A stretch of DNA of 63,231 nt, filler included, from Klebsormidium nitens (Eukaryota > Plantae > Klebsormidiophyceae), in NCBI GenBank assembly GCA_000708835.1. It is 4 parts of 4 records of this genome, joined end to end, with 100 filler letters (N's around TTAATTAATTAA, not from the genome) between each part and the next. Parts side by side here need not be neighbours in the genome. Positions count along the whole stretch, not along the records: positions 60,716 to 63,231 come from DF238517.1; 3 more parts are not named here. One strand, written 5' to 3'. The position numbers were made by a program, and so were the translations under genes. The notes beneath the pieces are model-generated. The model made no database searches, was not told the DNA's origin, and saw only the letters and a list, made by a program, of their open reading frames with translations. Positions 25,389 to 63,231 of this stretch are shown here, in pieces; position 1 is the stretch's first letter; every line of letters starts with the position of its first letter.

Positions 25389-26938
25389 CCACGCCCACAC
25401 CGGGTGCCCCAGTGTTGCATAGAAGCTAGGGTAGACGCAAACCTGTACAAAATTGAGTAAGCATCGAACCGTAGCCAAAGAAATTAAAACAGAGCACACA
25501 AAAATGTAATGTTTATGGTCCCAATTGTCCGTTCACCAAAGCCATCCAAGTTGGTAGTCTGTCGATCTTCTTATTGTATGAGATTCTAGCAGCAGATACA
25601 GCTACTATTAGCTGATTCCCTGCAAAGGTGCAAAACAGCAGGATCATTGTAATTGGAAATTGAAGTTCATGCCGGTCTGCAAACACGGCTTTTGGTTTTG
25701 GGACAAGCTCGCGCTTGTGTATCCGCGTTAGCTTTGAAGACGTGCATCCACGTTCTCTCCCCGTTCGCTACTGTGCGAATCATGCGTGCACTCATGTACA
25801 ACTTTTTCAGTCTTCGAAGAGGTGTAAGAAAGTCGGAAGTCGTGTCACGTTCACATGGTTGAGCAGTGCTGCCTTCATCGATCCATTTTCCGACTAGATT
25901 GATGGCGACTGTTTCTCTCGTTGGATCCGCTCATCACACTGCAATCATTCAATAGTCAACTTCGGGACATGAGCGGTCACTTCCGGTTTGTTGTACAGTC
26001 CATGAGGCGTAATGCGTTGATCGAGCGAAGCTGTGCCAGCGAGACTGGGGTAAATGGAGTCAACCGGACTCTTCCGCTATATAGCATGTCCTAAGATTGA
26101 ATTTCCGCGTGTCGTGCCGTGATGAGTCGAGGCTGTNNNNNNNNNNNNNNNNNNNNNNNNNNNNNNNNNNNNNNNNNNNNTTAATTAATTAANNNNNNNN
26201 NNNNNNNNNNNNNNNNNNNNNNNNNNNNNNNNNNNNCATACCTTTGTACCTTGGTCGTACGGTAATCACCTAGGCTCAGCAGCCTGCCAGCAGCACCGAA
26301 CTGCATTGCATGAGGAAGTGGGGCCACTGGCGGTTGCAATACCGGTAGTTGGAATTAAAACTCAAATCCTCATGTTTTTGACCTAATACGGGCACATTTT
26401 GCATTGGTACAGCCTACAGGTGCCCACCCGGGAAGCTTATAAGCAGGCACACCGTTACGGGAATATGACACTTGTCAGAGTCTTGCTCAGCTTTGGCCGT
26501 TGTCCCCACCTTGTCCAGACCGGATCCGAGTGTCAGACTTGGAACCCAATTGGCAGAGGATCGTCCTTCATTGTCACATTTTAAGGGTACCCTTCTCGGC
26601 TTGGGCAAGGCGTTGCAAAGGACCTCTGTAGGTTGGCAATTGCAGCGAGGGAAGGACGCACTTTGGTGGCGGAAGTGGCAGGAAGTGCAAGACCGGAGAC
26701 GGGTGGAATAATGAGAGCGCTGGCCGCAGCATCAAAAATGGCTGCTTGCTGACCCGGGACGCCTGCGCAGGGGGCAAGGGCATGTGGCGGGTATGGGACG
26801 GCCTCTAGTCGTAGAGAAAGCAAGCCAAGAGGGTTGCCACCTGAGTCATTGCTACACTGCAAAGGTGTGCTCAATAGACTCGGCTAGGTAGAGCAAGGTT
26901 CCATTCTGTGAGCCAGACGAAGCAGATTGCACGAGACT

Positions 26939-43187: not shown

Positions 43188-44970
43188 CGCGCGTGGGAGA
43201 CGGCCCCTGTACAGAGCAGGCAGACGCGGGCCAGTCTGTCGACAGTGTGTATGACATGCGCGGTGTGCTGCAGGACATGCCCGGGATGCCTTGGGGTGGC
43301 GCTCATTGGGACCTGCGGCAGCCACATATCATAACGGGTTGTTAGCAAGCTGCTTCCGCTCTTTGGAGCAAGGAGTTGAATAATCAAGTATATGTCTAAA
43401 GGTGAACAAACAACCAGCTTGGGGGATGTAGGGTATCCAACTTAACCGGACATCACACATTGCACGCATATATGCGCATCGAGGCAGCAAATTGAACTTG
43501 AAGACCTCAACTAATACCGGTAGGTTTGCTGTCCAATTGTGTTTGGTTCACCTGCAATAGAGTTGAATAAGGCGTGGATGCAGACGGTTGAAGTTGGCTG
43601 ATTACAAGCCAGCCTGCAGTTCTAAGGTTCGGGTATGTACATTCAGACACACGCCGCGCATGACGCTATCGACAATCAAAGCTTTCAACGTGGCAAAGTA
43701 TTTGTATGTTTGTAGTCTCGGCATACTCGTCGCGAGGCCAATGATGCCTCGATGAATCATGATATTGACAATCTAGCGATCGAGGGCTTGAACAGCCAAC
43801 TGTTGGGGTGCCATCATATATGTGGTGCGCGTCAGGAACTAAAAGCATCCAGGGCCGCACGCGGCACACAGAGGCCGCCCATGACCACGCTTCGTATACG
43901 TACAACTTGATGCTGCAGCATCATGCACATATGCACGTGATCGATTGATTGCCATACATAGGCTGCTACTAAGTATGCAACGTACATAGGTTAGAAGGAC
44001 TTGCTTTGGTTTGTGTAAAATCCGCCGGCCTTGGCTAATGACATATCAATGTGTTAAGTATATGAATTGAAATTTGATTAACCCCTCAACTTTCAGTGCA
44101 AGAACGGTGCCGTCGCGCTGGCCGTGCGCAGCATGCATTGTCAGGGTGCGCTGCATTATGGTACGCGTGCGTATATACGCGCGCAGGCACATGACTAAGG
44201 TTGCGTACGTCACGTCCTTATATAATCTTAGCGCCGTCGAGCTGCATGGCTGGCCCCAAGCATGGTAGAAGTTAATCGTCCGAATGATCGAGTTGCTAGT
44301 CGTGTCATAAAATTGAAACGTATCCTGAACGATTGCGACGGGCCATATATAACGTTAGTACCATGCAATCTGGGGCATGTCATACATCATTATATGGCGT
44401 GACCGAACGTTATAGGATCAAACTTTCGATTTAGCGCTAGTAGCTTCACGCGCACCCGTCACACTATGCATGATGATCTCTTTTCACAAGGCCGTTTTCA
44501 TTGAATCNNNNNNNNNNNNNNNNNNNNCTATTAGGGACTGGTGACATCGGAGTTATCTGACGGCCCGGGGGAAGGCCCCAGAATTTTGTCAGCCGTCCGA
44601 TGGACCCCCCTGCCATGAATAAATTTGACTCGGAAAACACTCGCGAGCCGAACTCCGGACCAGGTTAGACCTCAGTTAAATCCAAACCCGCTAAGATTTC
44701 ACTCGCGCCGCAAACGGCGGAACCTCGAACCCGACTTGACCCACCGGGCACTGACCTCGCTAAACATTCGGAGCACACCTGCCACGTGACGTACCGACGA
44801 GAGCCCGGGACCACTGAATGTGCCCTAAATCTACTCAGAAAGTTACCGTCCGTGAGTTACAAGTCCCGGTACATACCATCGACTTGGGTACCAGGGAACC
44901 TCAGGTCCAAGTTCAACTAGCAGTGCCTTATTTCTGAGTCTCTGAAATATCGATTGAGCCCCCAAGGCCG

Positions 44971-45185
44971 CAGGGTTTGTGCGCCCCCAGGGTTTGGTGC
45001 GCCCCCAGGTGTACACGGTTTGTTGCGCCCCCAGGTCTACAAGGGTTTGGTGCGCCCCCAGGTCTACAGGGTTTGGTGCGCCCCCAGGTCTACAGGGTTT
45101 GTTGCGCCCCCAGGTCTACAGGGTTTGGTGCGCCCCCAGGTCTACAGGGTTTGTTTCGCCTCCAGGTCTACAGGTTTTGTGCGCC
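44971..45185. repeat. 26-bp minisatellite, about 7 full units plus partials
   Basis: Consensus GCGCCCCCAGGTCTACAGGGTTTGGT, head-to-tail with no spacers. Confidence 0.93.
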
Positions 45186-45539
45186 GGGGACAATCAGGAA
45201 TTAAAACCTGGACAGCTACGGTACCAACCGGGCACCGCATTACGCAGAAAATCCCCAAGGACTGTGTCCCGTACGTATGCGGTACCAACCGACTGCCCTA
45301 CTGGTCTGGTAGGTAACCTGCAATCCCCCATGACAGGGCGACCACAGGGCTACCGGGCGGCCGGGCCGACCGTAAGCTCCCGCTCTTTTTGAACCCCTCA
45401 GCCCGAGGTTCCAGCGTGGACATGTCTGACAAGACACCACATCTTCTACTGCACAGACTGTAGCGTACCTTGCAATACCACCGGTGCTACTTCTAAATAG
45501 AACCGCACCCCTATTGACGCTCGTCGCATCTATCAGAAA

Positions 45540-48465
45540 TCATGGCGCCGAGCAGCTAGAAACGCGATAGAAGAGCGATTGCAGTATGCAGACCGTAGCA
45601 TTTTTCGAGCAATTACGGGTGATTGAAAATGGCCATCGAAGACCAATACAGCCCAGCTTGGCGAGACTCTCCAGCATAGAAGGAGGCAGGAAGATATAAG
45701 ACACCAGGTAGAAGTGAAAGCATTGGAGGCTGCCATGGCATGCCAGGTGAGCTGCATGCCGAGTGAATTCCACTAGGTCTGGGGCTAGGGTTGAATAAGC
45801 AGACCTTGTGACAAGGCTCTTCTATACCTACAACCTCGAGTCAATGCTTGCTCCTTCGCTTTGCAGAACGCCTTGCTTGACTGCTGGAATACCTTAGGTA
45901 GCACACCCCTGCTTCTATCATCTGCTGTAGGTCTCATGCATACTGCGAAGCAACGCATCAAGGGGGAAGTTCAAACTCGTCCTGCATCGGTCCGTTCGTA
46001 GGCTTCTTCGATTGCTCATGGCAACCTTTTGCACGTCTTGCAGGCAACCAGAACTGTTGCCTCCGAGGACAGCGAACCTGCTTTACCAGCAATCAAGAGG
46101 CTAAGTGCGCAGCATGACAAGACAAAAACACCCCAAGAGCAGGCAAGGCCGCTCATGCTTACCCTTTTTGTCAGCTCAAGAATTTTATTTTGCAAGATCG
46201 AATAAACTCTTGGACCATGCGTGACAAACACCCTTGCCAGAGCTCCAGCTATGTTATGTGGCGCCCCCTGATTTGCTGGGGGGTCCTTGCAGGATGCTCG
46301 GTCTGAGTCCAGCTCACAGCATGATCACCTTGGGGCAAGGAGAGGTGTTAAACGCAAGCAGCAGAGCACGGGAGGCTATACAGAAGAAGACAACAGTTCA
46401 TCAGACTCCGGGCTGCAGGTTAGCAGCATTCTGCAGCTTCTTGCACCTTTATCATCATGCTACTCAGATATTTTTCTGGAACAGACATCCAGACAGAGCA
46501 TCAATGACTAAGCAACTCACCCCCTTGCCCACAACCCGTTCAGGAGTCCTCCCGAGACAATTCACAAGAGAGTAGTGCGGGCAGCGAGGACATCGGACTT
46601 TCAAACAACCGGGAGGCAAGGTCTGAGGACAGCCGCCCGGCAGGTTCGTTAGACAATTTCATCGACCCTGCCAACAGCCCCCTCGAAGGCCCGTTCTTCC
46701 ATGCAGCTGTCGACAACAAGGAACGAGCAGCACGCGCTGCAGAGCAGGTTAGCTCCCTACTTGTGCCTTTCCATGTGGCTTTACACCTCTGCCACCATTG
46801 ACGAACAGGTCTCTCCGCAGTAAAATAAACCGGTGGGCTTCTGGAAACACGACCTATTCCATCGGATGCAAACTGCTAGTGAGTCACAGGATCCGCCCAT
46901 ACCGCCCCCAATGCAAGGACGGAGACCTCCGAGAGGGTCTTTTGCAAAAGAGTTCCAACAATGACTTTCCGCATACCCACCCATGCCGCCCTGCACGTAG
47001 CCTAACATTCCCGCCTCTTCTCATGCAGTCACGAGAAGGAGTGGGGCAGCTCGAACCGGTATGTAGACGCACCCATCCAATTCTGCAGCGTGTTTGCCGC
47101 TTAATCTTTTCTTAAGTACTTATTGTTGTCTCATGAGTTCCCTAAATGCTTGCATTCAGAAGGGACATCCAGAATGACACAACGTCTTGTGCTTCCCAGC
47201 GAACTTACAGTGAGTCCACCATGCGAGTGCCATTTGTTGAGCGTCGAACCACGTCAGCGGAGACGCACAGACATTCTAAACATTCTTTTCATCTTGTAGG
47301 TAAAGAAACCGTCGAGTAGCGGCGAACGACGTCGTGACGAGGGTGTGTTTGATGAGGAGATCGCAGAACCGGACGCCGAATGGAGCGGAGACGATCTGGA
47401 CCTGGTGAGTGGTGTCTTTTTCGATCTCATCGAGTCATGGCCACGGGCTCGAATGCACTCCAACGTATGTGCCTGACGCTACATCGTGTTCTCGGTCCAC
47501 AGGGTCAGGACTGCTTGATCGAGGACCTCGCGCAAGAGATGGTGAGGACATCTGTCCGCGACCCGGAACCGGTGAGCACATCCGACTCTTTTCGTCTTGA
47601 GCACGAGTGCTGTTTACGGTTTCTGTAATCCAGAAAGTATCACGAGAACAAGCGAATTTTTAGAATCCATGAACGATCTTTGTAAGAGCGGTGCTGATGA
47701 GCATGTACGGGCTGATAGAGTGAAAGGCTCCTTCGTAATGGTTGACGTGGCATTTTGGGAGGCTTGAGCGCCCCTCGCGTGCTGGGTGGTGCGGCTGTGT
47801 CTGCCGGAAGCCGTTTTCCGGACCCTTTTGCAAAACACCCTCTCGGAGGTCTCAGTACCCGGTATGAGTGGTCTCGCATCCGAGGCGGCGTCTCGCTCTC
47901 GGTTCAGCTATGAATGAGTAAGCATCCGTGATTCTGAGGTCCTGCGTGGGTCGAACGTCGTTTCTGTCGCCGTCTGACCCGCCCTCTTGCGTTCACGAAG
48001 GGCCCGACCACGACTATCGTAGAGGAGTGGAGGCGTCTCGTGAAGGGCGGGTATGCGGTGGCGAGTGGGCTGCTGACGACGATCATGAAGGACGGTAGGG
48101 TGAGGAGAGGAGAGAGAATCGGCCGAGTGCGACGAACCATCTCGTGATGTGATCTGCAGCCCGCTTGCTGGGCGACAGCGGCGGTATGCTGTGCAGATGC
48201 TCAGCTATGCGCCTCTTTCGTGTCGCGCAGAGACGAAGAACCCGCAGCCTGGCCGGTGGAGGCACTTGACGCGCAAGGAGGCGAGCTTCTGCGCACCGGA
48301 GGACAACATGCTGTACATGACGACGGGCAAGGCGAACGACGTGATCGTGCTGGACGTGGCACTACATTGTCCGGCCGGTTGTCAAAAAGCGCACTACGAT
48401 TTGCCCGGGGCCCGCAAGATACGGGGCTGTTCATCCAGCGGGGCCACGTCAAATGTACGGAATTT
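45540..48465 (+). pseudogene. Degenerate multi-exon gene relic ending in a Prim-Pol-like domain
   Basis: Exon-like blocks bounded by CAG| and |GT, for example DARSESSSQH...GLQ and KKPSSSGE...DDLDL. A stop interrupts the first block. Joining the blocks into one gene is an inference. Confidence 0.4.
48001..48465 (+). pseudogene. Prim-Pol (bifunctional primase-polymerase) N-terminal domain fragment with a putative spliceosomal intron at 48095-48230
   Basis: Splicing gives EEWRRLVKGGYAVASGLLTTIMKDETKNPQPGRW...NMLYMTTGKANDVIVLDV, which parallels LADHGLYGIPV...NGVAILTGTSGLFVIDID in the 61520 ORF. The second Asp of DxD is absent, and a gap cuts the sequence. Confidence 0.55.
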
Positions 48466-48933
48466 NNNNNNNNNNNNNNNNNNNNNNNNNNNNNNNNNNN
48501 NNNNNNNNNTTAATTAATTAANNNNNNNNNNNNNNNNNNNNNNNNNNNNNNNNNNNNNNNNNNNNCCGCTTCACCCCACGCTATATTTCGCTGCCAGCTA
48601 ATCGATAGTTAAGTTGTCCGTAGCTCCACGCTGAGTTACGCTACAGTTAGCTGTGGGTTAGTATAACTCTGAGCCATACGGGAGTGGGAACTATGAGTAG
48701 TGTTTATTGTAAACCGCTAGTGGTCCCAGCGTTCCGGTGGTCTTCCTAGTGCAGTACAGCTACTGATTTATGCTGTGTAAAAGCCAACTTTGTACGGTAC
48801 GTAGAATCTTTACAAAATCTGCCCGAAGTAGTTTTCCTCGGCATCCAACAAAATCCGTCGACGAGATATTCAGATATTCCGGTTTAAACGGGAATGGGCC
48901 AACCGAACATTGAAAATCACTCAGTGTTTTCGG

Positions 48934-49422
48934 CCCGGGGTGGCAGCTCCCTGGATAACCCGTAGTATCTGCCAGAATATTCAACGATGGAGGGGCTTGC
49001 TTTTCCGATATATCTATCGACAAATAATTCGATATTTCCAATATATTCGATATAAAAGCTTGCTTTCCAGGATTTTGCACTGTATAAATATCCAAATTAT
49101 CGAATAAATGCAGGTATAAGCTCATATTTGTATCTTATCAGCAATATATCCAATATAACTGAATATATTCGGGTCTGAATCCTAGCATATCCGTGCTGGC
49201 ACCCTATTATTGGAAGTATTTGGTATCTATCCGGTTGAATAAATTGAATAAACATTACCCCCCCTTGATAAACTCTGAATAAAAGTGGTGATATGTGCAC
49301 AGCTCGAGGAGACGAGTGCGATGGTGCTGACAAAACTGGAATATTCGTTCGGATTCTTGACGATAAATGCATTTATCGAAATTTATTGCATTTATTTTTA
49401 TCCACGGAGCTGCCACCCCGGG
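48934..49422. mobile_element. MITE/foldback-like element with an AT-rich core
   Basis: 25-bp inverted repeat CCCGGGGTGGCAGCTCC(C/G)TGGATAA at 48934-48958 and 49398-49422, one mismatch. Weaker symmetry extends outward. No TSD identified. Confidence 0.55.
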
Positions 49423-50310
49423 GTTTTTGGGCCACTCAAGGTCCCCGAATATCCTCCAAACGATGGAAATTAACGTACTGGATTTTCCCGATACTTTTGG
49501 GGTTTTCCACGTCGTACAACAGTTTCTGTAGGGCCCGGTTTTTGCCGAGTTTAGCAGTGCATTGCAATATGATGCATGGGGTCTTGCCCCGGTCAACACT
49601 GACATCAAAAAGGAATTCTGACTTTGAAACCGGGGCGCCCTCCCACCCACCCAGTCACAAGGATTTTATAAGATGTGACAAGGAAGTTGAAGGAACCCTT
49701 GTACTAAGTTTTAGACTTTTATTTCACGTTAAAGTGGGCGTAGGCGTCACGCCGCCGGCATCGCCGAAGCGCGACGGCGGCACAATCTGGGCAAGCTATC
49801 ATCGTCCGATACATTCAACTCGTACTTTATTGCCGTCCGATCTCAAATGCACTCGCGAGTGCAGACGCCCACTTTAAAGTGGGCGTTCTGTTCCGCGGAA
49901 CGCCGGACGCTAAAGCAACTTCGGCAGCCGTCGGCTACAATCCGTCAGTGTTTGTACCGTAGATTTCATTAAATCGACGGGTCTGCATGCACTTTGTTCT
50001 TGAGCCGAGACTCGGTCCTCGTTGAAACTCATGACTGCGGCGTACGGTAAACCGGAAATTTGCCTAACTATGATTAGGCCGGAGCCACGGGCGACGGGCT
50101 ATTTCAATATCGCTGTGGCTTGTTGAGACCTGCGCCGCAAGGCGCCGGAGTCGCCGGGTTCTACAGTGCTCTCAATCTGCAGGTCACAGAAGTGACTTCC
50201 ACACTGCGGAGGCTCACCTTCTATTTACGATTGTTTGCTCCGGGTAGTGGAGACCACAGTGATTCTGCATGCGCCGCTCTGTGGAACACCCAAAAAGAAC
50301 GAAAAAGAAT

Positions 50311-50378
50311 GCACTTCTGCGAGATTTGAACCCGTGAATTTTTGGCATGTGACTCTGCGCTCTGCCACTACGCTACGA
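50311..50378 (-). repeat. tRNA-derived Pol III head (SINE-like)
   Basis: A-box TAGCGTAGTGG, B-box GGTTCAAATC and downstream T-runs. The cloverleaf stems do not close. Confidence 0.55.
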
Positions 50379-51286
50379 CCAAATCCCCCGGGGACAATGT
50401 TGTCCGCGGAAATTCGAGCCGAAGGGGTTTTTGTAGGGGCACGCATTGATGTGTCACATATTGTACCGGGGCCCGCACGGGGATCGATATTGCCCTCCTA
50501 CCCGCCCATGAATGTGGGTCGGGCCGCCCTCCCAACCCCCCTCATTGAAGCAATTCTCTCAAATAATATATGCTTTCTATATTGAGGCGAGCAGCTATAA
50601 ATCCGCCGCAGGGCGCGCGGCGGATTGTATCTTCCTAGTTTTCCGGGGGGGTCGGATGAGCAGCGGCGCCGCAGTTCCGAGTCCTCCGCCGTTCGAGACG
50701 GTACCGTACATTCCCTCCGGAACGGGCGCAAGCATTCGTACCGGTATACCGGTTGTGTCTCGTACGGTAGCGGAAAACCCGCACTCGAATGAACTTGCAA
50801 GCGCGGAATACTTCCACCAGGCAAGATACACGTATGTACAAACGCAAGTGTATTAGAATGTACGAAAATGTTAGAACCCATATTCAGATAAAGATACACA
50901 TATAGGCAGACACCTACTGGAGACACCAGCTATCCAAGGCAGCGTCTCCGCCCAGGCGTATTGATTGAAACGTTTTAAAAAGTTGTAAAAACAGCCCACT
51001 GCCACTGCCACTGGGGCATCGTGCCAAAACACCTTTGTAGCGGTGCATTGAAGTCCGGGCTTTCGAAGTTTTGAGGGGGGCATGGAAGCCGGTTTTGAGT
51101 AGACCCCGAATTTGTCCGAGAGGGTATGGAAGCCGGCTTTGCTTTTTCTTCTCCAAATTCACTTTCTGGGGCGGGGTTATGAAAGCTGGTTCATAAACTG
51201 TTGAAGGGGTTATGAAACTTACTTCGCAAGCTAGCGCGCGCTATTTCAAGACGAGCGACTCGTTTCGGGGGTTCAAACGGTTTTTA

Positions 51287-52096
51287 GCTCGCCCGTATTT
51301 ACACCCCGATTCAGAAGTTTTATAACGTGGACTTATTAACCCTACAGGCGATTGGGGCCATTCTCAATTGGTTTCAGAAATTTTGGAAATTTAGGCAATT
51401 CCTATTATGAGATGTTTGAGGTGCAAGCACCTTGAAAGTTGATTTGAGGTGGCCAATACAAAAATGGCAATAAAATACTAGGACGTGCGCCAAATGGCCT
51501 TATTTTTGCCACGAATTGTGGTGACCCTTGTGCGGGAAGGCTCCGATCTTGACACCTCGAATGGATTCTTCTCGGTCTCATTGGTGCTTTATGAACACAA
51601 TGGCTTGCTGTGTTTCCCCAGTGGCTTTCGCCGAAAAAACCGTACTCGAAAGCCGGTGGCAGGCGTACAAAGTCACATGTCCGCCGCGCGAGTTCCGTCG
51701 AGGATGGAACGCTCTGAATTTTAAATTCCATGAGTCTCGTGTCAACCCCAATTCATTGGTAACGAACCGTTCTGTGAAGCACGCGAGTTTTGCCCATCAA
51801 AAAGTGATACATGCAAAAAAGCAAAAAATATGGAGTCAGGCTCGAACCCGCGACCTCGCGCTAGGCGCTCGGACGCTCAGCCCGGCCACGGACTACGGCG
51901 TCAAGAGGCCATGATCTCGCGCAAATGCTGGCGCATTGGTGGCCTAATCGCCTGATTTATTGTATAGAGGGTTGTGTTCAATTTGGTTAGGTCAAAGGAA
52001 ACAACCTACTAAAGTGTTAACTGTAACCGGGTTAGATTGCGACGTCATCCGGATTAGGTTACGAAACTTCTGAATCGGGGTGTATACGGGGCGAGC
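51287..52096. mobile_element. MITE-like element bounded by ~33-bp inverted repeats
   Basis: GCTCGCCCGTATTTACACCCCGATTCAGAAGTTT (51287-51320) versus the reverse complement of 52064-52096. Confidence 0.55.
51831..51900 (-). repeat. tRNA-derived Pol III head (SINE-like)
   Basis: A-box-like TAGTCCGTGG, B-box GGTTCGAGCC, then TATTTTTT. The T-stem is mismatched. Confidence 0.55.
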
Positions 52097-54451
52097 TTTA
52101 GCGGACATCCGGATCTGGGGTCCTTCTGGCAAACTAATCTACGAGGTGATATTGAACTTTGCCTACAGGTCGCCGGGCACCAAGTTTGCCGGAAGCGTGG
52201 AGCGAAGCACCGAGGCTAGCTACCAGGGAGCTGGAGTATCTCTTGAAAGGAGTGTTGTAACCGGTTAGCTTTCAAAATATCTCCCGGGATCATCGACCGT
52301 GTCAACAGTGATCAGACCGACTGGTAACCCGGATAGGTCTAAGGTAACCCCACAAAGTCCAGAGAATTCCAAGTACATTCCAATTCTACCATTGCCTTGT
52401 TACCCTGGGTACTAAAATGCGGCGACAGATGCGTGGAGGATATACCGACACAGTCGCTCTACCAAGAGTTCCCGAGGAGTCATTTCCGACGGCGTCTGAA
52501 AATGGCCGTAGATTCCGTTTGACAGAATTGACGTGACGTACGATCCGTCACTACATTCTGTCGCTAAAATGCAAAATAGCCCGCACGCGCGGCATCCAAT
52601 CCGGCGTTTCGACGATAAACGCGCATTTATGTAGAATATGGACCGATTCTATCCGATTGGACCGATTCTATATCTATGCTATGGACACTGTAGCACGTGG
52701 CCGATTAATATTGCATATTATGTCGCCACGACACCTATACGGTTGACGTGGCAATTCTGCACCGTTGATTGCGTACCATGTCACCATTGCTTAACGGCTA
52801 CTTGCTGCAGTTGACCGTTGCGACTGCTAATCTATCTTGTGAGCACTTGCTTGTTATGTATCTTGCACCTTGTGACTGGATCTACGGCTCACCTATAAAG
52901 GTGGACTTCTCCACCGTGTAAGTCCTCATTCCTGGTTTCCAAGTTTGAGGCATCCAATCTCTAGCAAGTTTCTCAACTCTCGAGCTCCGCTCTTCCCGCT
53001 AAGCTCCCTACTAGTGTATAAGTCTCCAATTTCCTTGTGAAATTAGCCTGAGATTGCTGAGAAGTTCAGTAAAGAGTTTGCTGTACAACGTCCGGGGTCC
53101 CCGCATAAAGACCATTGGATTTGGCCGTAATGCTGTAGTTTAAAATTCAATCAAGTTTTGTGCCAAACAAATAATGCTGTGTAATCGATAGATACGTACA
53201 GTAAACTTTGCACAAAATGCCCGAATGGTTGAGACCACTTGTTACTCGGCGTACAGCAGAATTCGGCCGTTTGTGTAATGGCGAGGGGCAAACCCAACAT
53301 GGAAATCTCCTCAAGGCTTGACCATCACTTCAGTTGCCCGTACATAAGCTTAACGTCCTAGATAACCCACTTTTTCCGACTTTTTGGCGTTGTACGGTAG
53401 GTTTAATTCGCTCGATAAACAAAAGATGGCCCAGGGGGGACTCGGCCGGGTCGTTCGGAACGAAATATATGAGTCAAGGTCCTCAGACCGGGCCGCCCTC
53501 CCGCCCCCCCTAAGAGGAGAGACAATTTATCAGGACTACGGTTACATTTTGGATTTAATTTCGATTCTTGTATCGGGCAGTGCACGGAATTTTTTCCCGC
53601 CCTCCCACCCACCCATTATGATGTGACCGGGCCGCCCTCCCACCCACCCTCAGCCTTGCCATTTGAAGAATATTGTGCTTTCTTCATTGAGGCGAGCTGC
53701 AAAATCCGCCGGAGGCGGATTGCTTCGTCCTAGTTTTCCGGCGACAGACCCCAAAGAAGGATTTCGTGTCCCCGTACTTGAAAAGTCTTGAATATTCTCA
53801 GATCTAGGAGGTTCCTTGAAGGTTTTAAGCCACGTATACCGTATGTCTAGTATCTGAATGCACCTGGTTCTAATCTCGGTATTACAAAAAATCCTAGAGC
53901 GTTTTTCAAGCCACTTCGAAGGTGAGAGGGGAGGAAAAGATGGGAGCAAATATTGTACTACCTACTAGGGGTCAAAACTTCGACTAGAGACCGGAGGTTG
54001 CCAGGGTTTAGATGCTCATCCCCTGGAAGCTAGCCGGTTTTTAAACCGGAGTTCAGTGCACCACTGCACATGTGTTTCGAGTCTTGACACGATGCAGGCA
54101 CGATGCCCAGGAAAGAAAATCTTGCTAGGATCATGGATGTATTACTTCTGCGTCTTTGACCAAAACACGTTCTAAAACCAGAGTTGCCACCCCGTGCTTC
54201 ACATGCCGAACCGCATGCAAGCTAGAAAAGGAGTCCCGGGGCCGAAGGAGGCTTTCAATGAAATCTGTGCGTGAAACATGACCTTACCATGTAGCGAGCG
54301 TTGCCGAGTAAACTATGTGCCTCAGGTCTGTGCAGAGGTCGAAGTACCAACTATTTTACCAGGTCAGCTAGAAGCCCATCCGTTTTAGCAAAGCTGGGGG
54401 TTATGATGAGACCGCGGCATTGCCCCACGTTGGACTCATCCCTTTGCACCC

Positions 54452-57096
54452 ATGAGCCTGCTAGTAATTGAGCTCAAGGGTGCCAGGCTCCGTTTTCTGA
54501 TCTGCCTTTACTGCCTTATGACTGTCCTATTGAGTTTCACCGCACTTCAGGTGATAGTACCCACTTTCCAGGATTGCAATGCAAAAAGGCAGATTGGCAT
54601 CCGCGCAACGGATTCTAGTGGCCCGCGCTGCGCGAATGAGCTGTCAGACGCACTGGCGAAAGTTGCAGACCAGGTGGACAAGCTTGAAGGGGTGGTCCTT
54701 CAGTTTGAAAGTGAGACACAGGTACGGGAGCCCCAACGGCCCTTGATTGAGGAAGCAATATGTGTCTGCGCACCACTGGCTAGGCTGCCACAAACATTAC
54801 ATCGAGCAGCGTTTTCTTGTGCCGTCATGTTCCTGCAGGCCCGTTCTTGTCCCTAGCCTAGTGGTGTTTTGGAATTGCTAAGTCCCTGTTGCAGACCTCC
54901 ATATTCAAAATGCAGGCATGGGCTACAGCTAGATCAAAAGATTCGCCCCTCATCTGACGCAGCTTGTGACTAACGTGATTCACTTTGAACAGCACAGTAC
55001 TTTACATAAAGAAGTGAATGGTAAGACGTAAATTTGAAGCATTGAAGGTGTGCGCCGATTCTTCCTGAAACTGAGGATTGACGTCCTACAAGGGCAGATG
55101 CCCCCTAGTGTTGCAGACCTGATGTGGTTCTAGCGGCCACGTCAGTGAAATCCTTGGTTGCATGGTTGAAGATACTCAGAAGGAGCAAATTTGACAAGAC
55201 AAAGTAAACAACCTTTTTAGGGGCGCCAAGGAGGTCTGTGCAGATTGAGGGTTCTCTCACGTTGTTCAGTTTCACACTTGAGGAGTTCCTACCGATCCCC
55301 ACCCCTGATGCAGGCAGCAACTAAAAAGATTGGCCGGCGGAGCAACTTCGAGCAAGTCATCAATGGAGTGGCCCACGACGTGAAGGTGTTGAGAGCAGAG
55401 CGGCCAGTGAGCTTGTTCCTGGGGGGTCGCGTTGTCATGTGTTGGGTTGACTTCTTCCAGCAATACTTTTACCTTGACTCCCGGGACCGGGGCTTGACAC
55501 CGCACCTGTGTGGGGGCACTGTGTGGGAGCATGAAATCACAAGGACTGTCAAGAGAATTGTGCGCTCAGGCCAGCGAGTGGTGGACATAGGAGCTTGCAT
55601 GGGGTGGTGTACCGCCGTCTTTGCGGGTGCGGTAGGGGAGACCGGGAAGGTGCTTGCGGTAGAAGCAAACCCTCGGCTCAGCGACATGCTCGCTCGCACA
55701 ATGCAGGTAATCACCACGCTTGTTGATGAGTTGCCCAACGCCACCGGTCCATACGAATTGTCACCAATGGAGGCCTGCACAGAATGCATGAAACTGCCTT
55801 GTTCAAAGCAAAGTTCCTGGGTGTTTCTAGAAGCTGGACAACATTTCTCTTTACTTTCCCCCCAATTGGTTGCTATGTTCAGTTCAGTATACGGAAAGTT
55901 CGTTCTGATTGAGGCTGAAGCTCGCCTGGCCAGAACAGAAAAACCGCGACTCAATGCAAGTTCGTCAAAGATAGATCGCCCTACCTAATGTTAAGCAACT
56001 GAATCGTACCTTCCTCAGGAGTTGAAAAAATTAACCAGGCGCAATATTGTCTTGTCAATCAAGCCATTGATTTCGCATTGAAACCAACACGCAGCATTGC
56101 TAGGAATTAAAGTTCCTGATTGATCCATCTGCCTCAAAATTCATATTATTGTGTTTATTCTAAGAAGAACCAAATGGAGGTCTTATCAAATGACGCCAGG
56201 CAGGAGCACGGATACCAGTCCGAATATGTTCGAAATCAGGACCATACTCAATCAGTGGTGGTCCATACAAGATGCTGGATCCCTCGACTCTTGATGCAGG
56301 AGCATCCACATGTTCGGGTAGTGAACAAGGCGGTTGGGAGCCAGGACGACACACAGGTCTTTGTGGAGAACAAGATGACGTATTGCCCTGGGAACAGGGT
56401 TGTGAGGGAAGCAAATGCAAGCCTTGAGCCGGTGGAGTACGTGAAATTGGATACACTGCTTTTAAATGAAGGGTGGGACCGTGTGGATGTGATCAAAATC
56501 GATGTGGATGGCCATGAGTGGCGGGTATGGGAGGGGATGCAGGAGACGCTGTTGGAGAACCCTGATCTTGAGCTACTCCTTGAGGTGAGCCCTTGCAATG
56601 ACGAGATTCATCGAAATGGTGGGGAGTTGGCCGGCAGACGTGTGTTTTTTTTCAGAGTGATTGACTCGTGTTCTCTTTATTATTCATTATTCTGAAACTT
56701 GCTCTCAGCACTTTCCAGTTACGAGACCAACAAGCAGTTGCTAGCTTTACGTTAGAAAAAGAAGCCTGCAATCATTATTCCATCTTCATTTGTCTGACCT
56801 ACCGGTACAAAAGTGTTTAGCCACAACCTGAATGTACAGCTTGCAGCACAAACCCCACTGGCCCGAGTCGGACAATTGTGTCATACTCCTGAACAACTTT
56901 CTTATTGTCCTTGTAGATCAATTTTCAACGAGATAGGGTGAATAGGATCGATTCAAAGCTGTATTATGAAGCCTTGAGGAGCAAATTTGAAAACATGTTC
57001 ATCATAAGGAGAGAGGATGGTTTGTTGATGCAAACGAGTCCATCAGAGCTGCTTGAATCGTTTGGTAACGTCAATCTATATTTAAAAAATAAGTAG
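54452..57096 (+). CDS. FkbM-family SAM-dependent methyltransferase with an N-terminal membrane anchor; multi-exon model inferred
   Basis: Hydrophobic N-terminus (FLICLYCLMTVLLSFTAL). YLDSRDRGLTPHL...WEHEIT, motif I VVDIGACMG, VLAVEANP, NKAVG, KLDTLL...VDVIKIDVDGHEWRVWEGM. The final 60-codon exon 56917-57096 ends in TAG. Confidence 0.8.
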
Positions 57097-59687
57097 TCAT
57101 TTTCGATCGCACCACAACAACAAAGCTATAGCCCGATCACGTCGCCATCGTTTTGCGGATACCAACCGCTTACATACAAAGGAGACACATGACCGGTTGC
57201 AAAAGCTTACCAACCGGATGACTTGAACAGGGCAAAGTTGTTGTAGCAATAAAGTTGTAGGCCGCGACATCCCTCGAGTGTCTCATAATGTACGTAAAGG
57301 AATCAGGCTCCGATTGCGTCGGAAGGGCGTCAAAAGATCAAACCTTCGCTTGTCTTTGGACCAGTTGATCCATAAGGCAAACAAGAATAGTGACAGGATT
57401 CTAAAGCCTGATTTACTATGGTGTGATCACATTGTGACAAAAGGTCGACCGCCCCTCAGAGCTCGCCCAATACCGGATGCGACGGGCTAGGCCGTATAGG
57501 CTCGGGGAACGTGACGGATGGATTCATGGATCTAGTAGGGGGACGCTAAATCGAAACTTAGGGAACTCTGCCAAGTGAATCTGGATCGAACGCAACACGG
57601 TACGCACTATGTAGCAAAATTACAACACATATTCAAAGCTCTCCGATCTCATGAATTCCGGCAAATCAAGCTGGCTATTTGCGGTACAAACAAAGGCAGA
57701 ACATGCCTTTGAGTGCTTATGTAAGATGAGAAAAAGAGTCTTGAAACCATCAAACTTCTACGGTATGGCAGGCTTGCACCATGGGTCTTGATGCTATGAA
57801 CGAGAGAACATCGGAGGGGTGTCATAATCAAGCACCTTGGCGTATCCTAATGCGGCTACTTCCAGCGATTAGATATAGCCGAATAAGCTGATTAGTGCTC
57901 ATGAGTGTTCAGATCTCTTTTAAATGTCATACAGTTTGAAGGACCTCAGAAAGTGAAGCGAGCGCGCGTTTGAAGCTTGCTCATTTGCTCTCAGTCGTGG
58001 ATGTATAGCCGACTCCTCTCTCAAGCCGTTAGAAACGTCTCGCAGTTAGAAAAGACACCTTAAAACAATGTAAAACATGGATGCGACTGAGTCGTGGTTG
58101 TATAGCCGGATTCATAGGCCTGTTCCGTTTTGCTTTCCGTTCTAGTTCGGTATTCGGTGTACAGCGTGGCAGCTTGTCCGAGGAGATTCAAGACCGGACG
58201 AGTCGAGCGGCTGCAGTGTTCGAAGGAAGAGGAGGCGCGTGGCGCGTCAGAGACTAGGTGGACCTGTCAAAGCGTCCATTGTCCAAGGCCGCGCACGCGA
58301 AGGAGGAGTCGGAAGCCACGCGTAGCGGGGCCCGTGTAGATAAGGGCGAAGATTTGGGTAGTGATTTCGGGTAAAAATGGGGAAATCAGTTCATGTAGCT
58401 TAGAGGCGAGCGTTTCGTCTGGTGGTGCATGTAAATCGGTGGTGCATGTAAATCAGGTCTAGGCCGAAACACATATTTTCCAGTCGAACCAAAAAAGGAG
58501 TAGGATCGAAACCAAGCGCATCATAAAGACTTGTAGTTAGATTCGATGTGCAAATAGATCCTAAGAGAAGACTTGAGAAGTGTGCAGTAAGCGCTTCATG
58601 AGAATTTGACTCGTAGGCCTAGCAGAGAAGTTAGGAACAACACATTTCGGGGGAGAAGAAAGGAGGGAAGAAGCATATTTTTGGAGCGCCTCAACCAAGT
58701 GTTTTTTCGTCATGTCGCAATCGACTTTTCGTTTGTGGCAAGTGCATCATTTTGCAACGGGCTGCTTGGAGCTTGGCGCGCGCGCGTACCATGTGGATCG
58801 CACTCATACAAGTCGAGTTTGGGGAAGCATGGTACCCCTTGCAAAGCCGCAAATCAGCATAAGGGCGTGTGAAGTACAATACGCTCTTAGGTTCGTGACT
58901 CGTGCACCAATCTTAGCCTCGCTTGTAGCTAGGACTCGGACGAGCCTCTATACCAACGACCCTATATATGCCCTGACACGCGTATAAGCAGCATGTGTCT
59001 TAGCCCATTCTGCCAGTGAGCACGCCGCACGATGCCCATATTATCTAATAGGGGCGATGGGTTCATGCACTACAAATGACAAAATGGGTACAACATGTCT
59101 TCTTAAACTGCGGCACTCCGGCGCGCGAGCGCGCGGCGTACACGGTTGTTGCAAGAGCGTTGAACCTCCAGCCATGATATCTCAACCGGGAAAAAATGCA
59201 TTCCATGCCAAAAATGCTAGAAGAGCCCCACCCCCCAAAACTTACCGAGCAGGTACGTTTGAGGACCACCGTACCTAAAACTTAGTGCTCCCGTACTGGG
59301 TTTGTGACTTCTGGTACCAATAAAAAGCTGGCATGTCTACCTACTGTTTCCATGCAAATTTCTCTCTACCGTACTACAAGTATCACAATCCTCCCAGCAA
59401 CAACATCCTTTTCTGCCACCTCCAAGAGGACGTTCAATATGTAAGAGGACGTTGCCGCCTCAATCACGAATCAATTTCAATCAAATTCCTTTCGATCTTC
59501 CGACTCAAATTTCAAAGGCGAATCCCTCATCAATCCCCGGCACTTGATCGAGGAAGCGGAGTGAAAATATAACAGTTGCACTGTTTCGGCTACTATCCCG
59601 ACTCTCCCCCTAACTACCGAAATCGTTTGCTAGGTTCTATTCGTTGAACCAGCCGAACCTTATGCGATAGGGCGACTTAGCCTTTCG

Positions 59688-59888
59688 GACTAGTCGGCCC
59701 TAGATCGCTTGAAGGTACTCTAATAGGCTTGAGACTTGTCGGCCCTAGATCGCTAGCGGCTCGCGCACATAGTCTAAGTCTATCGGCGGTCGCACTTAAG
59801 ACTTGTCGGCCCTTGTTCGCGAGCGGCTCGCGCACATAGTCTAAGTCTGTCGCCGGACCGCATACCGGCCGCACCGGTGCCGGCCGGA
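59688..59888. repeat. 67-bp tandem repeat (two full units and one partial) followed by a GC near-palindrome
   Basis: AGACTTGTCGGCCC...GCGGCTCGCGCACATAGTCTAAGTCT at 59732 and 59799, partial unit at 59688, then CCGGCCGCACCGGTGCCGGCCGG at about 59866-59888. Confidence 0.85.
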
Positions 59889-60715
59889 CCGGAATGGACT
59901 GCGCCGAACCGCAGCCGGTCGCATCCCAACTCTTCCCGGATTATGCGGGCGAACGAAACTCACCGAGTTTACGTATACAAAAGGTTCCTCGGAATCTTCG
60001 AATAGAGGCTTCGCGGCTTAGTAGAGTCTTATTTTACCTTAGAATCCGCCTTGCTCGTAGACCTGCTGTATGTGTACGGATTGACTGAGCACGCAAGTCA
60101 ACGCGCGCGCGTATGCAGTAAGTGCAGACTGGGTCGGAGTCACGTAGGTCGAGTAGATACGCAGTGATATATTGCATAGTGCACAAAATACGAGGCAATC
60201 AGATCGGTATGCAGAAAAAAACAACACAAGGAAAACACACGATGGCACAGGCAATAAAACAACAATGGCTGCCGCGGTGCGCGGCGGTGATAGGCAAGAC
60301 ACTTGGTGATCCCAGGCGGATCCCGTTCTCCTTTGGTGTGAGAAGGAATGAACAATTGTTTGGGATCGCTTGGTATATCTACAAGTCTCTATACTATCTA
60401 GCCTCGGTTCCAGCGACCAGAAATCAAGCTGGCAACTGGCTCCCGTTCCAAAATGTCTCAGGCCGCTACTTTAGAACTGGTTTTTTATTCTACGGCCATC
60501 TTACTTAAGCACATAACTTATTCTTAATTCCCTTCTACGTAGCTTCCCTGCAGCTTCCTCGTCTCCAGAATCTTCCGCCCACAACTGCCACGATCTGTGA
60601 GTTTTATTACAGATCNNNNNNNNNNNNNNNNNNNNNNNNNNNNNNNNNNNNNNNNNNNNTTAATTAATTAANNNNNNNNNNNNNNNNNNNNNNNNNNNNN
60701 NNNNNNNNNNNNNNN

Positions 60716-61087
60716 AGAGCCACCGATACATATGTCATGGTCCTGAAGACGTTCAAAACTGCCAAAAAATTCGGTCAGCAGGAGTTCGAGTTGCCAAAAA
60801 GGCTCTCGCACTACATCGAGCGCTCGATCGAGCTAGTTCCAAGAGCATACTTTGTGACATTGCTGAGCGACCTCGGCCAGCCCATGAATGACAACTATTG
60901 GACGCAATTCATTCGAGAGATTCCCTTTTCAAAGGGCCGCCATCTCACGACCAATCACTTGAGGCACGTATTCGTGACCGACCGCTACGATAAGGACGCC
61001 TCTCTTTCAGATAGACAGTCCGTTGCCGGTCGCATGTTACACAGCGTCTCGACTCAGATGCGTAGCTATGAGAGAAAACGCAGCTAA
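60716..61087 (+). CDS. Tyrosine recombinase, C-terminal catalytic half (PLV/virophage OLV11-like); the 5' part lies in the gap
   Basis: Open from the gap edge. FKTAKKFG (catalytic Lys region), TNHLRHVFVT (N-x-x-R-H, box II) and RMLHSVSTQMRSY (second His and Tyr nucleophile). The box I Arg is not visible. Confidence 0.8.
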   Translation, partial: RATDTYVMVLKTFKTAKKFGQQEFELPKRLSHYIERSIELVPRAYFVTLLSDLGQPMNDNYWTQFIREIPFSKGRHLTTNHLRHVFVTDRYDKDASLSDRQSVAGRMLHSVSTQMRSYERKRS

Positions 61088-61425
61088 GCAACCTCGATCG
61101 ACCCGTCGCTCACAAACCTCATTATATTGTCTCCTCCCTCCTTCTTGTCAAAGGTTGGAGGAGTTGTGATGGCAAACCCCGCCTCCAGCAATCTCTCGAG
61201 AGTGCGTTTCTGCGTCCTACCTCCAGTCTGATACCTCTCATATGCTTGTGCTAGAAGTATTAAGTCCTTGTTTCGTGCGTAGTAGCGTCTACCGGATCGT
61301 TTGTGGGCTTCAGGATCGCGGAAGTAGTTCCTTCTGGCTGTCAGGCAGTGCCTGCACTCGCAAGTGAAGATCTCGTTGTCGTAAGTATCTTTTAAAGGTT
61401 GGTCTGCGGTCGAAGACGACATCAC
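61084..61425 (-). CDS. Small basic hypothetical protein with CxCxxC and a YYARNKD helix; possibly Zn/DNA-binding
   Basis: 113-aa intronless ORF (FTCECRHC; RRYYARNKDLILLAQAYERY). Its stop overlaps the recombinase stop by 4 bp, and it starts 94 bp from the Prim-Pol ATG. Confidence 0.6.
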   Translation of the reverse strand: MMSSSTADQPLKDTYDNEIFTCECRHCLTARRNYFRDPEAHKRSGRRYYARNKDLILLAQAYERYQTGGRTQKRTLERLLEAGFAITTPPTFDKKEGGDNIMRFVSDGSIEVA

Positions 61426-61519
61426 TAATCTGCAGCTAGAAAATATTTCTCAGACATCGCCCGCGCCGCGTTTATTCCTCGTGAAAATTTCCTTCCTCCA
61501 TTGGAGAGAGAACTTCAGC

Positions 61520-63231
61520 ATGCAAGCCGCCAACATCCCTTGCTCTCTCGAGCACACCATTGACGCCCCTGCAATCGAGGCCCCAGAGGCTTTGCCCCTG
61601 AGGGAGGAGGATGCTGCGACCCACGGCGCCCCTGACGTCAGGCCGGCGCCGTCCAACGTTTTGAGCATCAAGGATGAGATATTGCGCCTCGCTGACCACG
61701 GACTGTATGGAATCCCTGTGCACATCAAGATCAATGCTCGAGGCAAGAAGCAGAGCCGGTTTCCTTCCACCTACGCGCACATCGTCACTGTGGGCAATTG
61801 GGAGGAGCACATCGGCGCAGTGCTCGATGCATTTGAAAACCCCAACGGAGTGGCCATACTGACCGGCACGAGTGGCCTATTCGTCATCGATATCGACGTG
61901 GGAGAGAGCAGCAATAAGAAGTCGGGGATGGAATTCTGGCACGGGCAAGTGATGGAGTATGGGGAGCCTGAGACTCTCTCCGTTCGCACGGGCTCTGGAG
62001 GCCTCCACTACTACTTTCGGCTCGATAAAACCACCGGCTTGCACGAAACTACCAATTTTGCTGGACTCACGCTCGATGGGCAAAAGTTCGGCGTCGACGG
62101 GCGCGGCACCGGAGGGGTGATTTTTGCACCCCCGAGCAGGTACGGAGAAGGCAAGGATACACACCGCGAGTACACGTGGGTGGCCGGAGGTGATGGTACG
62201 GTTAAGGGTATGGCCCCGTGGCTCGTGAGCCTGATCAACCGAGGGCGCGCCTTTGAAGGGTTCTCGAGAAATGCAAATGGCCAAGTGCCTCACCGTGATG
62301 AAGCCGATTCCGAGGAGATCGTGCCAGAGGCCGTCGACGACGCAGAGGTTGGCGGTTCTTTGGCCAAGGCGGCTCCGGGCTTGGCGCACAAGGAAGTGAA
62401 GCAATTGGTGAGGGAGAAGGCGAAGGATTGCTGTTCCTTCTATACCGGCTCGACCATCCTACCGGACGGCAACAGATCGTTTCAGTTCAGGGTCAAGGGG
62501 TCGCGACAATGCTACCTGGGAAAAACGCATAGAGGGTCCAACAACTTCACGGTGATTCAAGGGTGCACCGGTGACTTTCAAGAGCTCTACTACAACTGCT
62601 TCGGGTCCCATTGCTGTGGCAGCAAGCCGAAGCTGCTGGGGCGTCTCACGATAGCCGGTGCTCTCGAGCAAGCTGGGGGTGGTGCTTTTGGACCCAAGGA
62701 TCAGCAGCCGTCGAGCCTCACTAAGCTGGCCGCTAGGTTCTCCGACCCGTTCATGCTGTCAAACGTGAGTAAGAGCGATATTGGTAGTGCTTTGATATTC
62801 AGCAAACTGTTCGAGCATGACAGGCGGGTCGTGTATGACTCAGGGAGATTCTGGACGTGGGATGCGACGAGTTGGGTGCCGTCCGATACGGAAGCAGCTC
62901 TGCTGAAGACCTCGTTTATGTACCACATGGGACGAGTCAAATCGTTTTGGTGCGATCGGCTGGAATGTGCTGTTGCCGAAAAGGTTCGGCCGTTGACGAC
63001 TCGCAGAGACAATGCTCTGAACGAACTGCAGTCCCAGGCCTCGGAGAGTGCGGACAAGAGCGAGAAGGGTGTCTTGAAGGGCATTCAAAAGGCGGAGAAG
63101 GCTATCATGGCAGACTTCGACATGGAGATGAAGAAGATACCCGAACCGGTGTGGCGTGGGGCAGCGGTCGAGTCTGTTCCCATCGCTCAAAGGTGTCTCA
63201 TTCCTTTGAAAGTGAATCTACGAGTGCGGGA
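61520..63231 (+). CDS. Prim-Pol primase-polymerase fused to a Zn-binding-like module and D5_N-like domain (D5-type primase-helicase N-terminal part); 3'-incomplete
   Basis: Translated by hand: 570 codons with no stop to the window end and no introns. Motifs: NGVAILTGTSGLFVIDID (DxD), VRTGSGGLHYYF, VDGRGTGGVIFAPPS, CYLGKTHRGSNN...YYNCFGSHC, and GSALIFSKLFEHDRRVVYDSGRFWTWDATSW. Confidence 0.88.
   Translation, partial: MQAANIPCSLEHTIDAPAIEAPEALPLREEDAATHGAPDVRPAPSNVLSIKDEILRLADHGLYGIPVHIKINARGKKQSRFPSTYAHIVTVGNWEEHIGAVLDAFENPNGVAILTGTSGLFVIDIDVGESSNKKSGMEFWHGQVMEYGEPETLSVRTGSGGLHYYFRLDKTTGLHETTNFAGLTLDGQKFGVDGRGTGGVIFAPPSRYGEGKDTHREYTWVAGGDGTVKGMAPWLVSLINRGRAFEGFSRNANGQVPHRDEADSEEIVPEAVDDAEVGGSLAKAAPGLAHKEVKQLVREKAKDCCSFYTGSTILPDGNRSFQFRVKGSRQCYLGKTHRGSNNFTVIQGCTGDFQELYYNCFGSHCCGSKPKLLGRLTIAGALEQAGGGAFGPKDQQPSSLTKLAARFSDPFMLSNVSKSDIGSALIFSKLFEHDRRVVYDSGRFWTWDATSWVPSDTEAALLKTSFMYHMGRVKSFWCDRLECAVAEKVRPLTTRRDNALNELQSQASESADKSEKGVLKGIQKAEKAIMADFDMEMKKIPEPVWRGAAVESVPIAQRCLIPLKVNLRVR

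Follow-up and report, generated by a model that had tools for sequence, protein, structure and literature searches.

The window analyzed here is a stretch of 63,231 nt made up of four joined parts of the genome assembly of the alga Klebsormidium nitens (GCA_000708835.1). Its last part (60716–63231, from DF238517.1) carries three tightly packed genes for a tyrosine recombinase (YR), a small basic protein and a primase-helicase, which together are a real multi-copy, virus-derived module for integration and replication. The first gene (60716–61087, plus strand) supplies the C-terminal 123 codons, residues 228–350 of about 350, of a YR of the virophage/Polinton-like virus (PLV), or OLV11-like, type. 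Its frame contains the motifs K-T-A-K, N-H-L-R-H and M-L-H-S and a tyrosine at 61067, in agreement with the YR catalytic half claimed in an earlier note on this DNA. It is convergent with the small open reading frame (ORF; 61084–61422, minus strand), which encodes a basic protein of 112 aa with CxCxxC and RRYY..RNK motifs, and the stop codons of the pair share 4 bases (CTAA, 61084–61087), again as claimed. A divergent spacer (61423–61519, no strand assigned), covered by variant contigs in all four sequencing runs, is likely to hold a shared promoter region. It is followed by the first 570 codons of the primase-helicase gene (61520–63231, plus strand), whose product is estimated at 900–950 aa and whose frame is still open at the window end. 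All three genes were said to be intronless, which holds over their visible extent, and homologues were found for each of them, so they are not chance ORFs. The module is truncated on both sides, by an artificial linker on the left and by the window end on the right. Three details of the earlier description needed adjustment. The spacer is divergent but measures 97 nt from ATG to ATG, and reaches the claimed 94 bp only if the GTG at 61425 is the start; the ORF called Cys-rich exists, with its three Cys all in the single CxCxxC motif; and in the claimed Prim-Pol/D5 replicase the Prim-Pol part stood, while D5_N and SF3 helicase were undetected in the window and were seen only in longer copies.

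The YR portion in the window is 98% identical to two other records (P0019 and P0037) and holds K241, R310, H336 and the nucleophile Tyr345, with the box I Arg falling in the gap to the left. Nine longer relatives and their cluster members define a protein of 350 aa, and loose ends in runs X2 and X8 extend the YR frame into the gap. Of 37 YR records, 12 reach at least 335 aa, and all five tested motifs are intact in 11 of those 12. Absence of the box I Arg had been set beforehand as a test against the module, and this Arg was found in full-length copies. In the Atlas, the nearest clusters to the full-length relative P0021 are Preplasmiviricota (score 0.98). A scan of IMG/VR with one YR motif yielded 120 loci from 16 of 64 parts, and a profile of the window family matched 117 ORFs in these motif-picked loci at E<1e-3; a second scan added 36 new loci, of which 32 also matched at this threshold. 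In the reverse direction, a profile built from the IMG/VR viral YRs alone matched the window at E 2.9e-19. When the algal YR was aligned with a dereplicated set of 67 viral YRs, to which it is 17–27% identical, R194, D196, R310 and Y345 (all outside the selecting motif) proved to be kept in 67 of 67; the His of HxxR is replaced by Asn or Ser throughout and H336 is common to 18 of the 67. The algal YR has the motifs PP.R..D, KTAK..G.Q, LRH, M.[HS]S and terminal Tyr in common with these viral YRs. The label "OLV11-like" is our assignment, made on the strength of the description of such YRs in PLVs and Organic Lake-group virophages (PMC4642659) rather than of an alignment with OLV11. An OLV11-like YR or rve integrase is a common, though not universal, feature of PLVs, and the window YR supplies it. 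Neither Pfam nor PHROGs gave a match to the YR, PDB sequence searches using YR profiles returned nothing relevant, and a structural model from a shallow alignment was unusable (pLDDT 38).

The primase ORF matches Pfam Prim-Pol (PF09250) at E 2e-15 and four primase families in PHROGs, and it carries the DxD at position 124 and His163 of that domain. The uninterrupted Prim-Pol ORF of at least 570 codons that had been claimed is thus present at 61520–63229. Between Prim-Pol and D5_N lies a C331-H337-C360-C365 motif, kept even in distant relatives, that forms a putative zinc finger. It may resemble the zinc finger of PrimPol and herpesvirus primases. D5_N begins within the window ORF and lies mostly past the window end, and the SF3 helicase lies entirely past it. 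Among 7,996 candidates scored, 18 primase relatives were identified: 11 at 72–97% identity, three at 37–46%, and four distant. Four of the 11 close relatives are annotated K. nitens proteins, and identity to K. nitens KFL_003750020 is 85%. The longer copies add D5_N and SF3 helicase; the full-length P0081 (901 aa) has Prim-Pol, D5_N and the Walker A sequence GPTNSGKT, with DUF5906 below its cut-off. The replicase feature of PLVs, pPolB or a primase-SF3 helicase, therefore appears as Prim-Pol in the window and as D5_N/Walker A in the longer copies. In the nine copies that reach it, Walker A ends in GKT (three), AKT (four), AKI (one) or EKT (one); the AKT copies (P0001, P0006, P0011 and P0085) could represent a tolerated variant or a helicase-dead lineage. 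The copy nearest to the window primase, P0003 (97%), is broken, with a late start and an end in a shifted frame. A structural model of the primase was of low confidence (pLDDT 44.5). Its top structural match was the D5-family helicase-primase of Bodo saltans virus, at TM-scores under 0.2, and PDB matches were non-significant (best, pRN1 primase-polymerase, E 0.05). The wide structure search was dominated by a generic helical hairpin, so that the putative zinc finger was barely probed. Two further proteins, P0014 and P0093 (on JGI/IMG contigs of 26,126 and 6,409 nt), belong to a second primase-helicase family that shares the first ~55 residues (MEASNKSRALEHTIDAP...) and is only 36–37% identical overall, which suggests a replicase swap behind a common start region.

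The small ORF has six homologue clusters at 67–95% identity, and an alignment of 20 rows contains 45 invariant columns. It has no match in Pfam or PHROGs, its profile found nothing significant among 3,161 viral ORFs (best E 0.016), and in the Atlas it scored 0.90, weakly, to unnamed clusters, one of them viral. Because the protein is small, basic, conserved, encoded divergently from the primase and weakly similar to unnamed viral proteins, our guess from its sequence is that it may be a DNA-binding accessory factor or regulator. Small ORFs of two subfamilies, one about 70% and the other 90–95% identical to that of the window, accompany YRs of a single 90% cluster (JGI/IMG contigs of 6,086, 9,058 and 12,298 nt versus 8,351, 19,929 and 63,523 nt, linked by equal contig sizes only). 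This pattern suggests that copies have recombined at the YR/small-ORF junction.

Linkage among the three genes was assessed by proxy: genes were assigned to the same contig when contig sizes in nucleotides were identical, with two clusters represented by 15 of 20 and 15 of 16 members. Among the matches listed, there were 36 distinct contig sizes for the YR, 30 for the small ORF and 13 for the primase; 14 of the 30 small-ORF contigs matched a YR contig in size, and 8 of the 13 primase contigs matched one of the other two genes. A size of 23,298 nt is common to YR, small-ORF and primase contigs, and one of 5,190 nt to a YR piece and a helicase-complete primase piece. A YR unlinked to the primase had been another adverse outcome named in advance; instead, the three genes are repeatedly linked across copies. 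Together with the box I Arg of the full-length YRs, this linkage bears out the proposal that the module is part of a mobile element from the PLV/virophage gene pool and is not a host gene family.

Sequencing runs show that the module exists in many versions. Runs X1–X3 come from one sample, possibly the source of the window, and so are not independent evidence; in them, 5,575 nt of the DNA left of the linker has an exact match. Against the module itself, 92 contigs of varying identity aligned in X1 and 136 in X2, the latter dividing into 48, 25, 34 and 29 at 99% or above, 95–99%, 90–95% and below 90% identity. Two runs from other studies, X5 (a sludge metagenome) and X8 (a second organism), gave 75 and 19 contigs, respectively. 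At 40 variant sites, which are the best supported of 557 and not a random sample, 25 differences were synonymous compared with 28% expected (p 7e-6), a bias in the sequences pointing to purifying selection between copy lineages. The copies are diverged and often broken, and the words "recent" and "intact" in the earlier note were not borne out for the window copy, given that its nearest relative at 97% is broken and that full-length YR records are the minority noted above. Summed depth averaged about 94 in X1 and X2 versus 7–13 for exact-copy contigs, which suggests roughly ten copies, a depth ratio and not a copy number proper. Contigs matching the module exactly had depths of 6.8 in X2 and of 10.6 and 12.6 in X1, versus 21.6 and 24–34 for the flank in these runs. 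Depth falls with GC (Spearman -0.90 in X1 and -0.75 in X2), and this bias largely explains the low values, so a sub-population or contaminant reading of them was rejected.

In K. nitens, a host gene with conserved counterparts in moss and green algae lies two gene models away from the primase copy kfl00375_0020 (PMC4052687, Supplementary Data 8), and this proximity indicates nuclear integration of that copy. Integration by YRs is described as using a circular donor and leaving no target duplication (PMC4642659, PMC12220804). Scaffold kfl00562 of K. nitens, with the primase copy kfl00562_0070, also holds a tRNA-Met at 21,423 and a U2 snRNA at 26,189 (PMC4052687), a possible target-site lead. 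Locus scans for the module family in viral and metagenome contigs found no true locus; the single candidate from the prokaryote genome scan (L001) was discarded as a 46-codon chance match.

What larger element the module belongs to was approached through viral contigs carrying the same YR family. At least one capsid, ATPase or protease cluster was present in 43 of 44 IMG/VR loci of 12 kb or more, with one of the two capsid clusters lacking a Pfam name. Two uncultivated, virophage-type loci (L076 and L080) resemble the module in having this YR family and a Prim-Pol/D5_N/SF3 primase-helicase on one contig; they differ in having PriCT_2 in place of the C/H-rich domain and in carrying a major capsid protein (MCP) cluster named Sputnik-type by Pfam. 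A third, L158, has a Prim-Pol helicase, a weak match to Capsid_N and a member of the YR family whose 300-aa alignment shows 21% identity. In this PLV-like contig, Prim-Pol is fused to a helicase of the herpes origin-binding type.

We consider it somewhat probable that the module is one end, the replication-and-integration end, of an endogenous PLV family in a Klebsormidium-type alga. This reading is favored because K. nitens has seven capsid loci of the PgVV group and because a PLV end module combining YR and primase-helicase has been published. The seven MCP loci (PC_0089) are tabulated in PMC10120064 (Tables S1, S4 and S5), where four are 71–86% identical to the reference, one is 29% identical, and one has its own 299-aa gene as its match; the tabulated MCPs are of the PgVV group, not of virophages. 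These endogenous PLVs occur in the host genus of our best named match and have an identity spread like that of the module copies, although as tabulated they are known here by MCP position alone (PMC10120064). The end module described by Barth and colleagues (PMC11296320) consists of a primase-helicase and a YR beside an inverted repeat, with signs of mobility, and it supports the earlier statement that YRs are paired with primase-helicases in PLVs. As reported for entomopoxvirus-associated PLVs and Gezel-14T, it clusters the same two genes and is proposed to act on the terminal repeat as origin and recombination site; it has a D5-like archaeo-eukaryotic primase (AEP) or TVpol primase (PMC11296320) where the Klebsormidium module has Prim-Pol (PF09250) with a putative zinc finger, and the conserved small ORF between YR and primase distinguishes the latter. 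More broadly, YRs in viruses of this kind are reported to correlate with replicases of the AEP and PolA types (bioRxiv 2026.10.13.758929), and Yrec is given as the commonest information-processing gene of PgVV-like PLVs (bioRxiv 2022.07.28.501842). A literature search, mostly of titles and abstracts, found no account of the module in Klebsormidium; Table S4 of Bellas (PMC10120064) credits the Gezel-14T preprint for the K. nitens MCP, and the supplements of that preprint may already map K. nitens PLVs.

Several observations weigh against assignment to a PLV. None of the copies was seen to have a capsid, ATPase or protease gene linked to it. The IMG/VR collection is pre-selected for viruses, so the capsid content of its loci cannot prove that YR plus primase is always linked to a capsid. 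On K. nitens scaffold 375, no more than one Augustus gene model separates the primase from the host gene, and one lies on the side of the scaffold start, a gene-order point limited by the tendency of Augustus models to miss intronless viral ORFs. That MCP loci and module are alike in copy number and divergence is circumstantial evidence, drawn from different assemblies. Finally, no close relative of the module family was found in the IMG/VR scans, and in a quick tree the algal family is separated from the 67 viral YRs sampled by a very long branch of its own (2.83 changes per column), which together with its low identity sets it apart from the OLV11-like YRs. PLVs are defined by three structural genes, for a double jelly-roll MCP, a minor capsid (penton) protein and an A32-like packaging ATPase, and they measure 15–30 kb with terminal inverted repeats, against which the window offers 2.5 kb of internal sequence. 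In the window itself, where the element is cut on both sides, no frame matched capsid, ATPase or protease profiles from IMG/VR clusters, MCP profiles from IMG/VR loci and Pfam (which include no PgVV-group seed), a penton or A32-like packaging ATPase, or the Sputnik-type MCP and cysteine protease.

A second explanation, which we regard as possible though less probable, is that nothing beyond these three genes belongs to the element, which would then be a YR transposon of about 4.5–6 kb that descends from a PLV end module, lacks a capsid and replicates itself. Such a transposon would leave the chromosome as a circle, be amplified by its own primase-helicase and reinsert, and would have reached roughly ten copies per Klebsormidium genome. 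An integrase and a primase-helicase are a minimal set that is self-sufficient in principle, and the abundance of distinct-size contigs with mostly synonymous differences (36, 30 and 13 for the three genes, among the matches listed), the absence of the module family from the IMG/VR scans, and the 5,190-nt size common to a YR piece and a helicase-complete primase all agree with such an element. Autonomous AEP-SF3 modules have also been hypothesized (bioRxiv 2026.10.13.758929), and the top structural match of the low-confidence primase model is to Bodo saltans virus, for which 12 AEP-SF3 genes are reported in the same preprint. On the other side, neither a terminus, an empty site nor a two-sided host flank was observed in the available copies, the seven PLV capsid loci of K. 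nitens roughly equal in number the module copies that this strain seems to have, and every fully readable context of the YR family is a viral contig, albeit in a biased set. The literature search described above found no capsid-less YR plus primase element in a eukaryote. The nearest parallels, transpovirons and the multi-copy AEP-SF3 genes of Bodo saltans virus, are presented as capsid-less or possibly autonomous members of the same gene pool; the latter are described without an integrase, whereas the Klebsormidium module pairs its primase-helicase with a YR in a nuclear genome, and transpovirons are described as having pPolB and a DDE transposase and no capsid (bioRxiv 2026.10.13.758929). 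A transpoviron was rejected as an identity for the module, whose replicase is Prim-Pol/SF3 and whose integrase is a YR.

Cryptons and DIRS-type retrotransposons are also eukaryotic elements mobilized by YRs. In Cryptons the YR is the only enzyme and there is no replicase gene, and in DIRS elements a reverse transcriptase and RNase H are linked to the YR; to our knowledge, neither group has a primase-helicase. A Crypton was rejected because a primase-helicase is linked to the YR in the window and on other contigs. No reverse transcriptase or RNase H was found in 44528–63231, the DNA upstream of the YR falling in the gap, and the YR of the module matches the viral family and has no Pfam match.

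It is improbable that the module is a fragment of an endogenized giant virus (Nucleocytoviricota), or a mobile primase cassette brought in by one. Phycodnavirus-like and giant-virus inserts are reported in Klebsormidium (PMC5294986, PMC11244446), OLV11-like YRs are noted in at least one giant virus (PMC4642659), and giant-virus proteins rank highest among the Foldseek matches to the primase model. That model is of the low confidence and TM-scores given above, however, the left flank lacks any capsid/ATPase profile match or viral Pfam family, and a three-gene order repeated in many diverged copies is unlike a single large insert. Least probable is that the 2.5-kb piece is a contaminant or a mis-joined contig unrelated to the host genome: although it follows a placeholder linker, is joined across a gap bridged by no contig and has exact copies at lower depth than the flank, the module and the flank both match exactly in the same runs, the GC-depth correlation largely accounts for the difference, and in K. 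nitens an 85% homologue shares its scaffold with conserved plant genes. The exact local join at the linker could still be wrong.

If the module is indeed a PLV end and works by analogy with the published one, excision of a circle would follow from YR recombination between short sites at the element ends. Replication would start from an origin close to the same end, where the primase-helicase would load, open the duplex and lay down primers, and a host or giant-virus polymerase would likely carry out the bulk of elongation. Progeny circles would then be integrated by the YR elsewhere in the chromosomes, and the small basic protein, encoded divergently from the primase, may act as a DNA-binding regulator. 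Genes for capsid, penton and packaging ATPase are predicted further along full-length copies, and a giant virus would probably be needed for particles to be made. Under the PLV reading, the module would be the source of the genes with which an endogenous virus family replicates and integrates in a streptophyte alga that can be cultured. Klebsormidium is a close relative of land plants that also has giant-virus inserts, and it would provide a plant-lineage system for testing such elements as inducible defence against giant viruses. If the element is instead capsid-less, it would be a class of eukaryotic transposon that we did not find described and would give direct support for the evolution of PLV replication modules into independent mobile elements: an end module gone autonomous in a nuclear genome, an example hypothesized but not shown in the available account (bioRxiv 2026.10.13.758929).

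The linker that truncates the YR (60616–60715, no strand) consists of 44 N, TTAATTAATTAA and 44 N, and recurs identically at 26137–26236 and 48466–48565. It conceals at least 681 nt of the YR; the true size of the gap is not 100 nt, because the missing part of the protein needs 227 codons (681 nt). No contig in the sequencing runs spans the join, and the apparent adjacency of the module to the host DNA on its left is that of a placeholder. Immediately to the left lies repeated non-coding DNA (59614–60615, no strand) with a direct repeat at 67-nt spacing, whose membership in the element is uncertain; neither Pfam nor Rfam matched it. The unique 5,575-nt flank contig stops at 59613, and depth is higher beyond that point. 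Run X5 covers the module yet has no contig across 59420–60615, a hint that the left repeat is not a conserved element end, although absence of a contig proves nothing. Among 66 ORFs in 44528–60615, the only recognized gene is for an FkbM-type methyltransferase, with no viral Pfam family and no core genes of nucleocytoplasmic large DNA viruses; this gene (55221–56695) is split over two frames and lies in unique DNA. Rfam gave no tRNA or other target in 44528–63231.

A long inverted duplication (3–1369 and 7333–8218, arms 83–94% complementary) lies amid retrotransposon remnants, near a copia-like reverse transcriptase fragment at 8526–9089 named by eye. GC-rich host genes occupy 15171–43400, identified by eye as acetolactate synthase small subunit, PP1, Nep1-like, Brix-domain, HAD nucleotidase and PP2C; two host exons there have a GC content at third codon positions of 0.88–0.89, versus 0.58–0.68 in the module. 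A nitrate reductase-like gene (20324–25388, also named by eye) is broken by a gap of 694 N, and a 13-residue peptide is present on both sides of it, so the gap looks like an assembly duplication. Past the linker at 48466, GC falls to about 0.49, and at 44963–45180 there is a tandem repeat of seven copies of a unit of about 26 nt.

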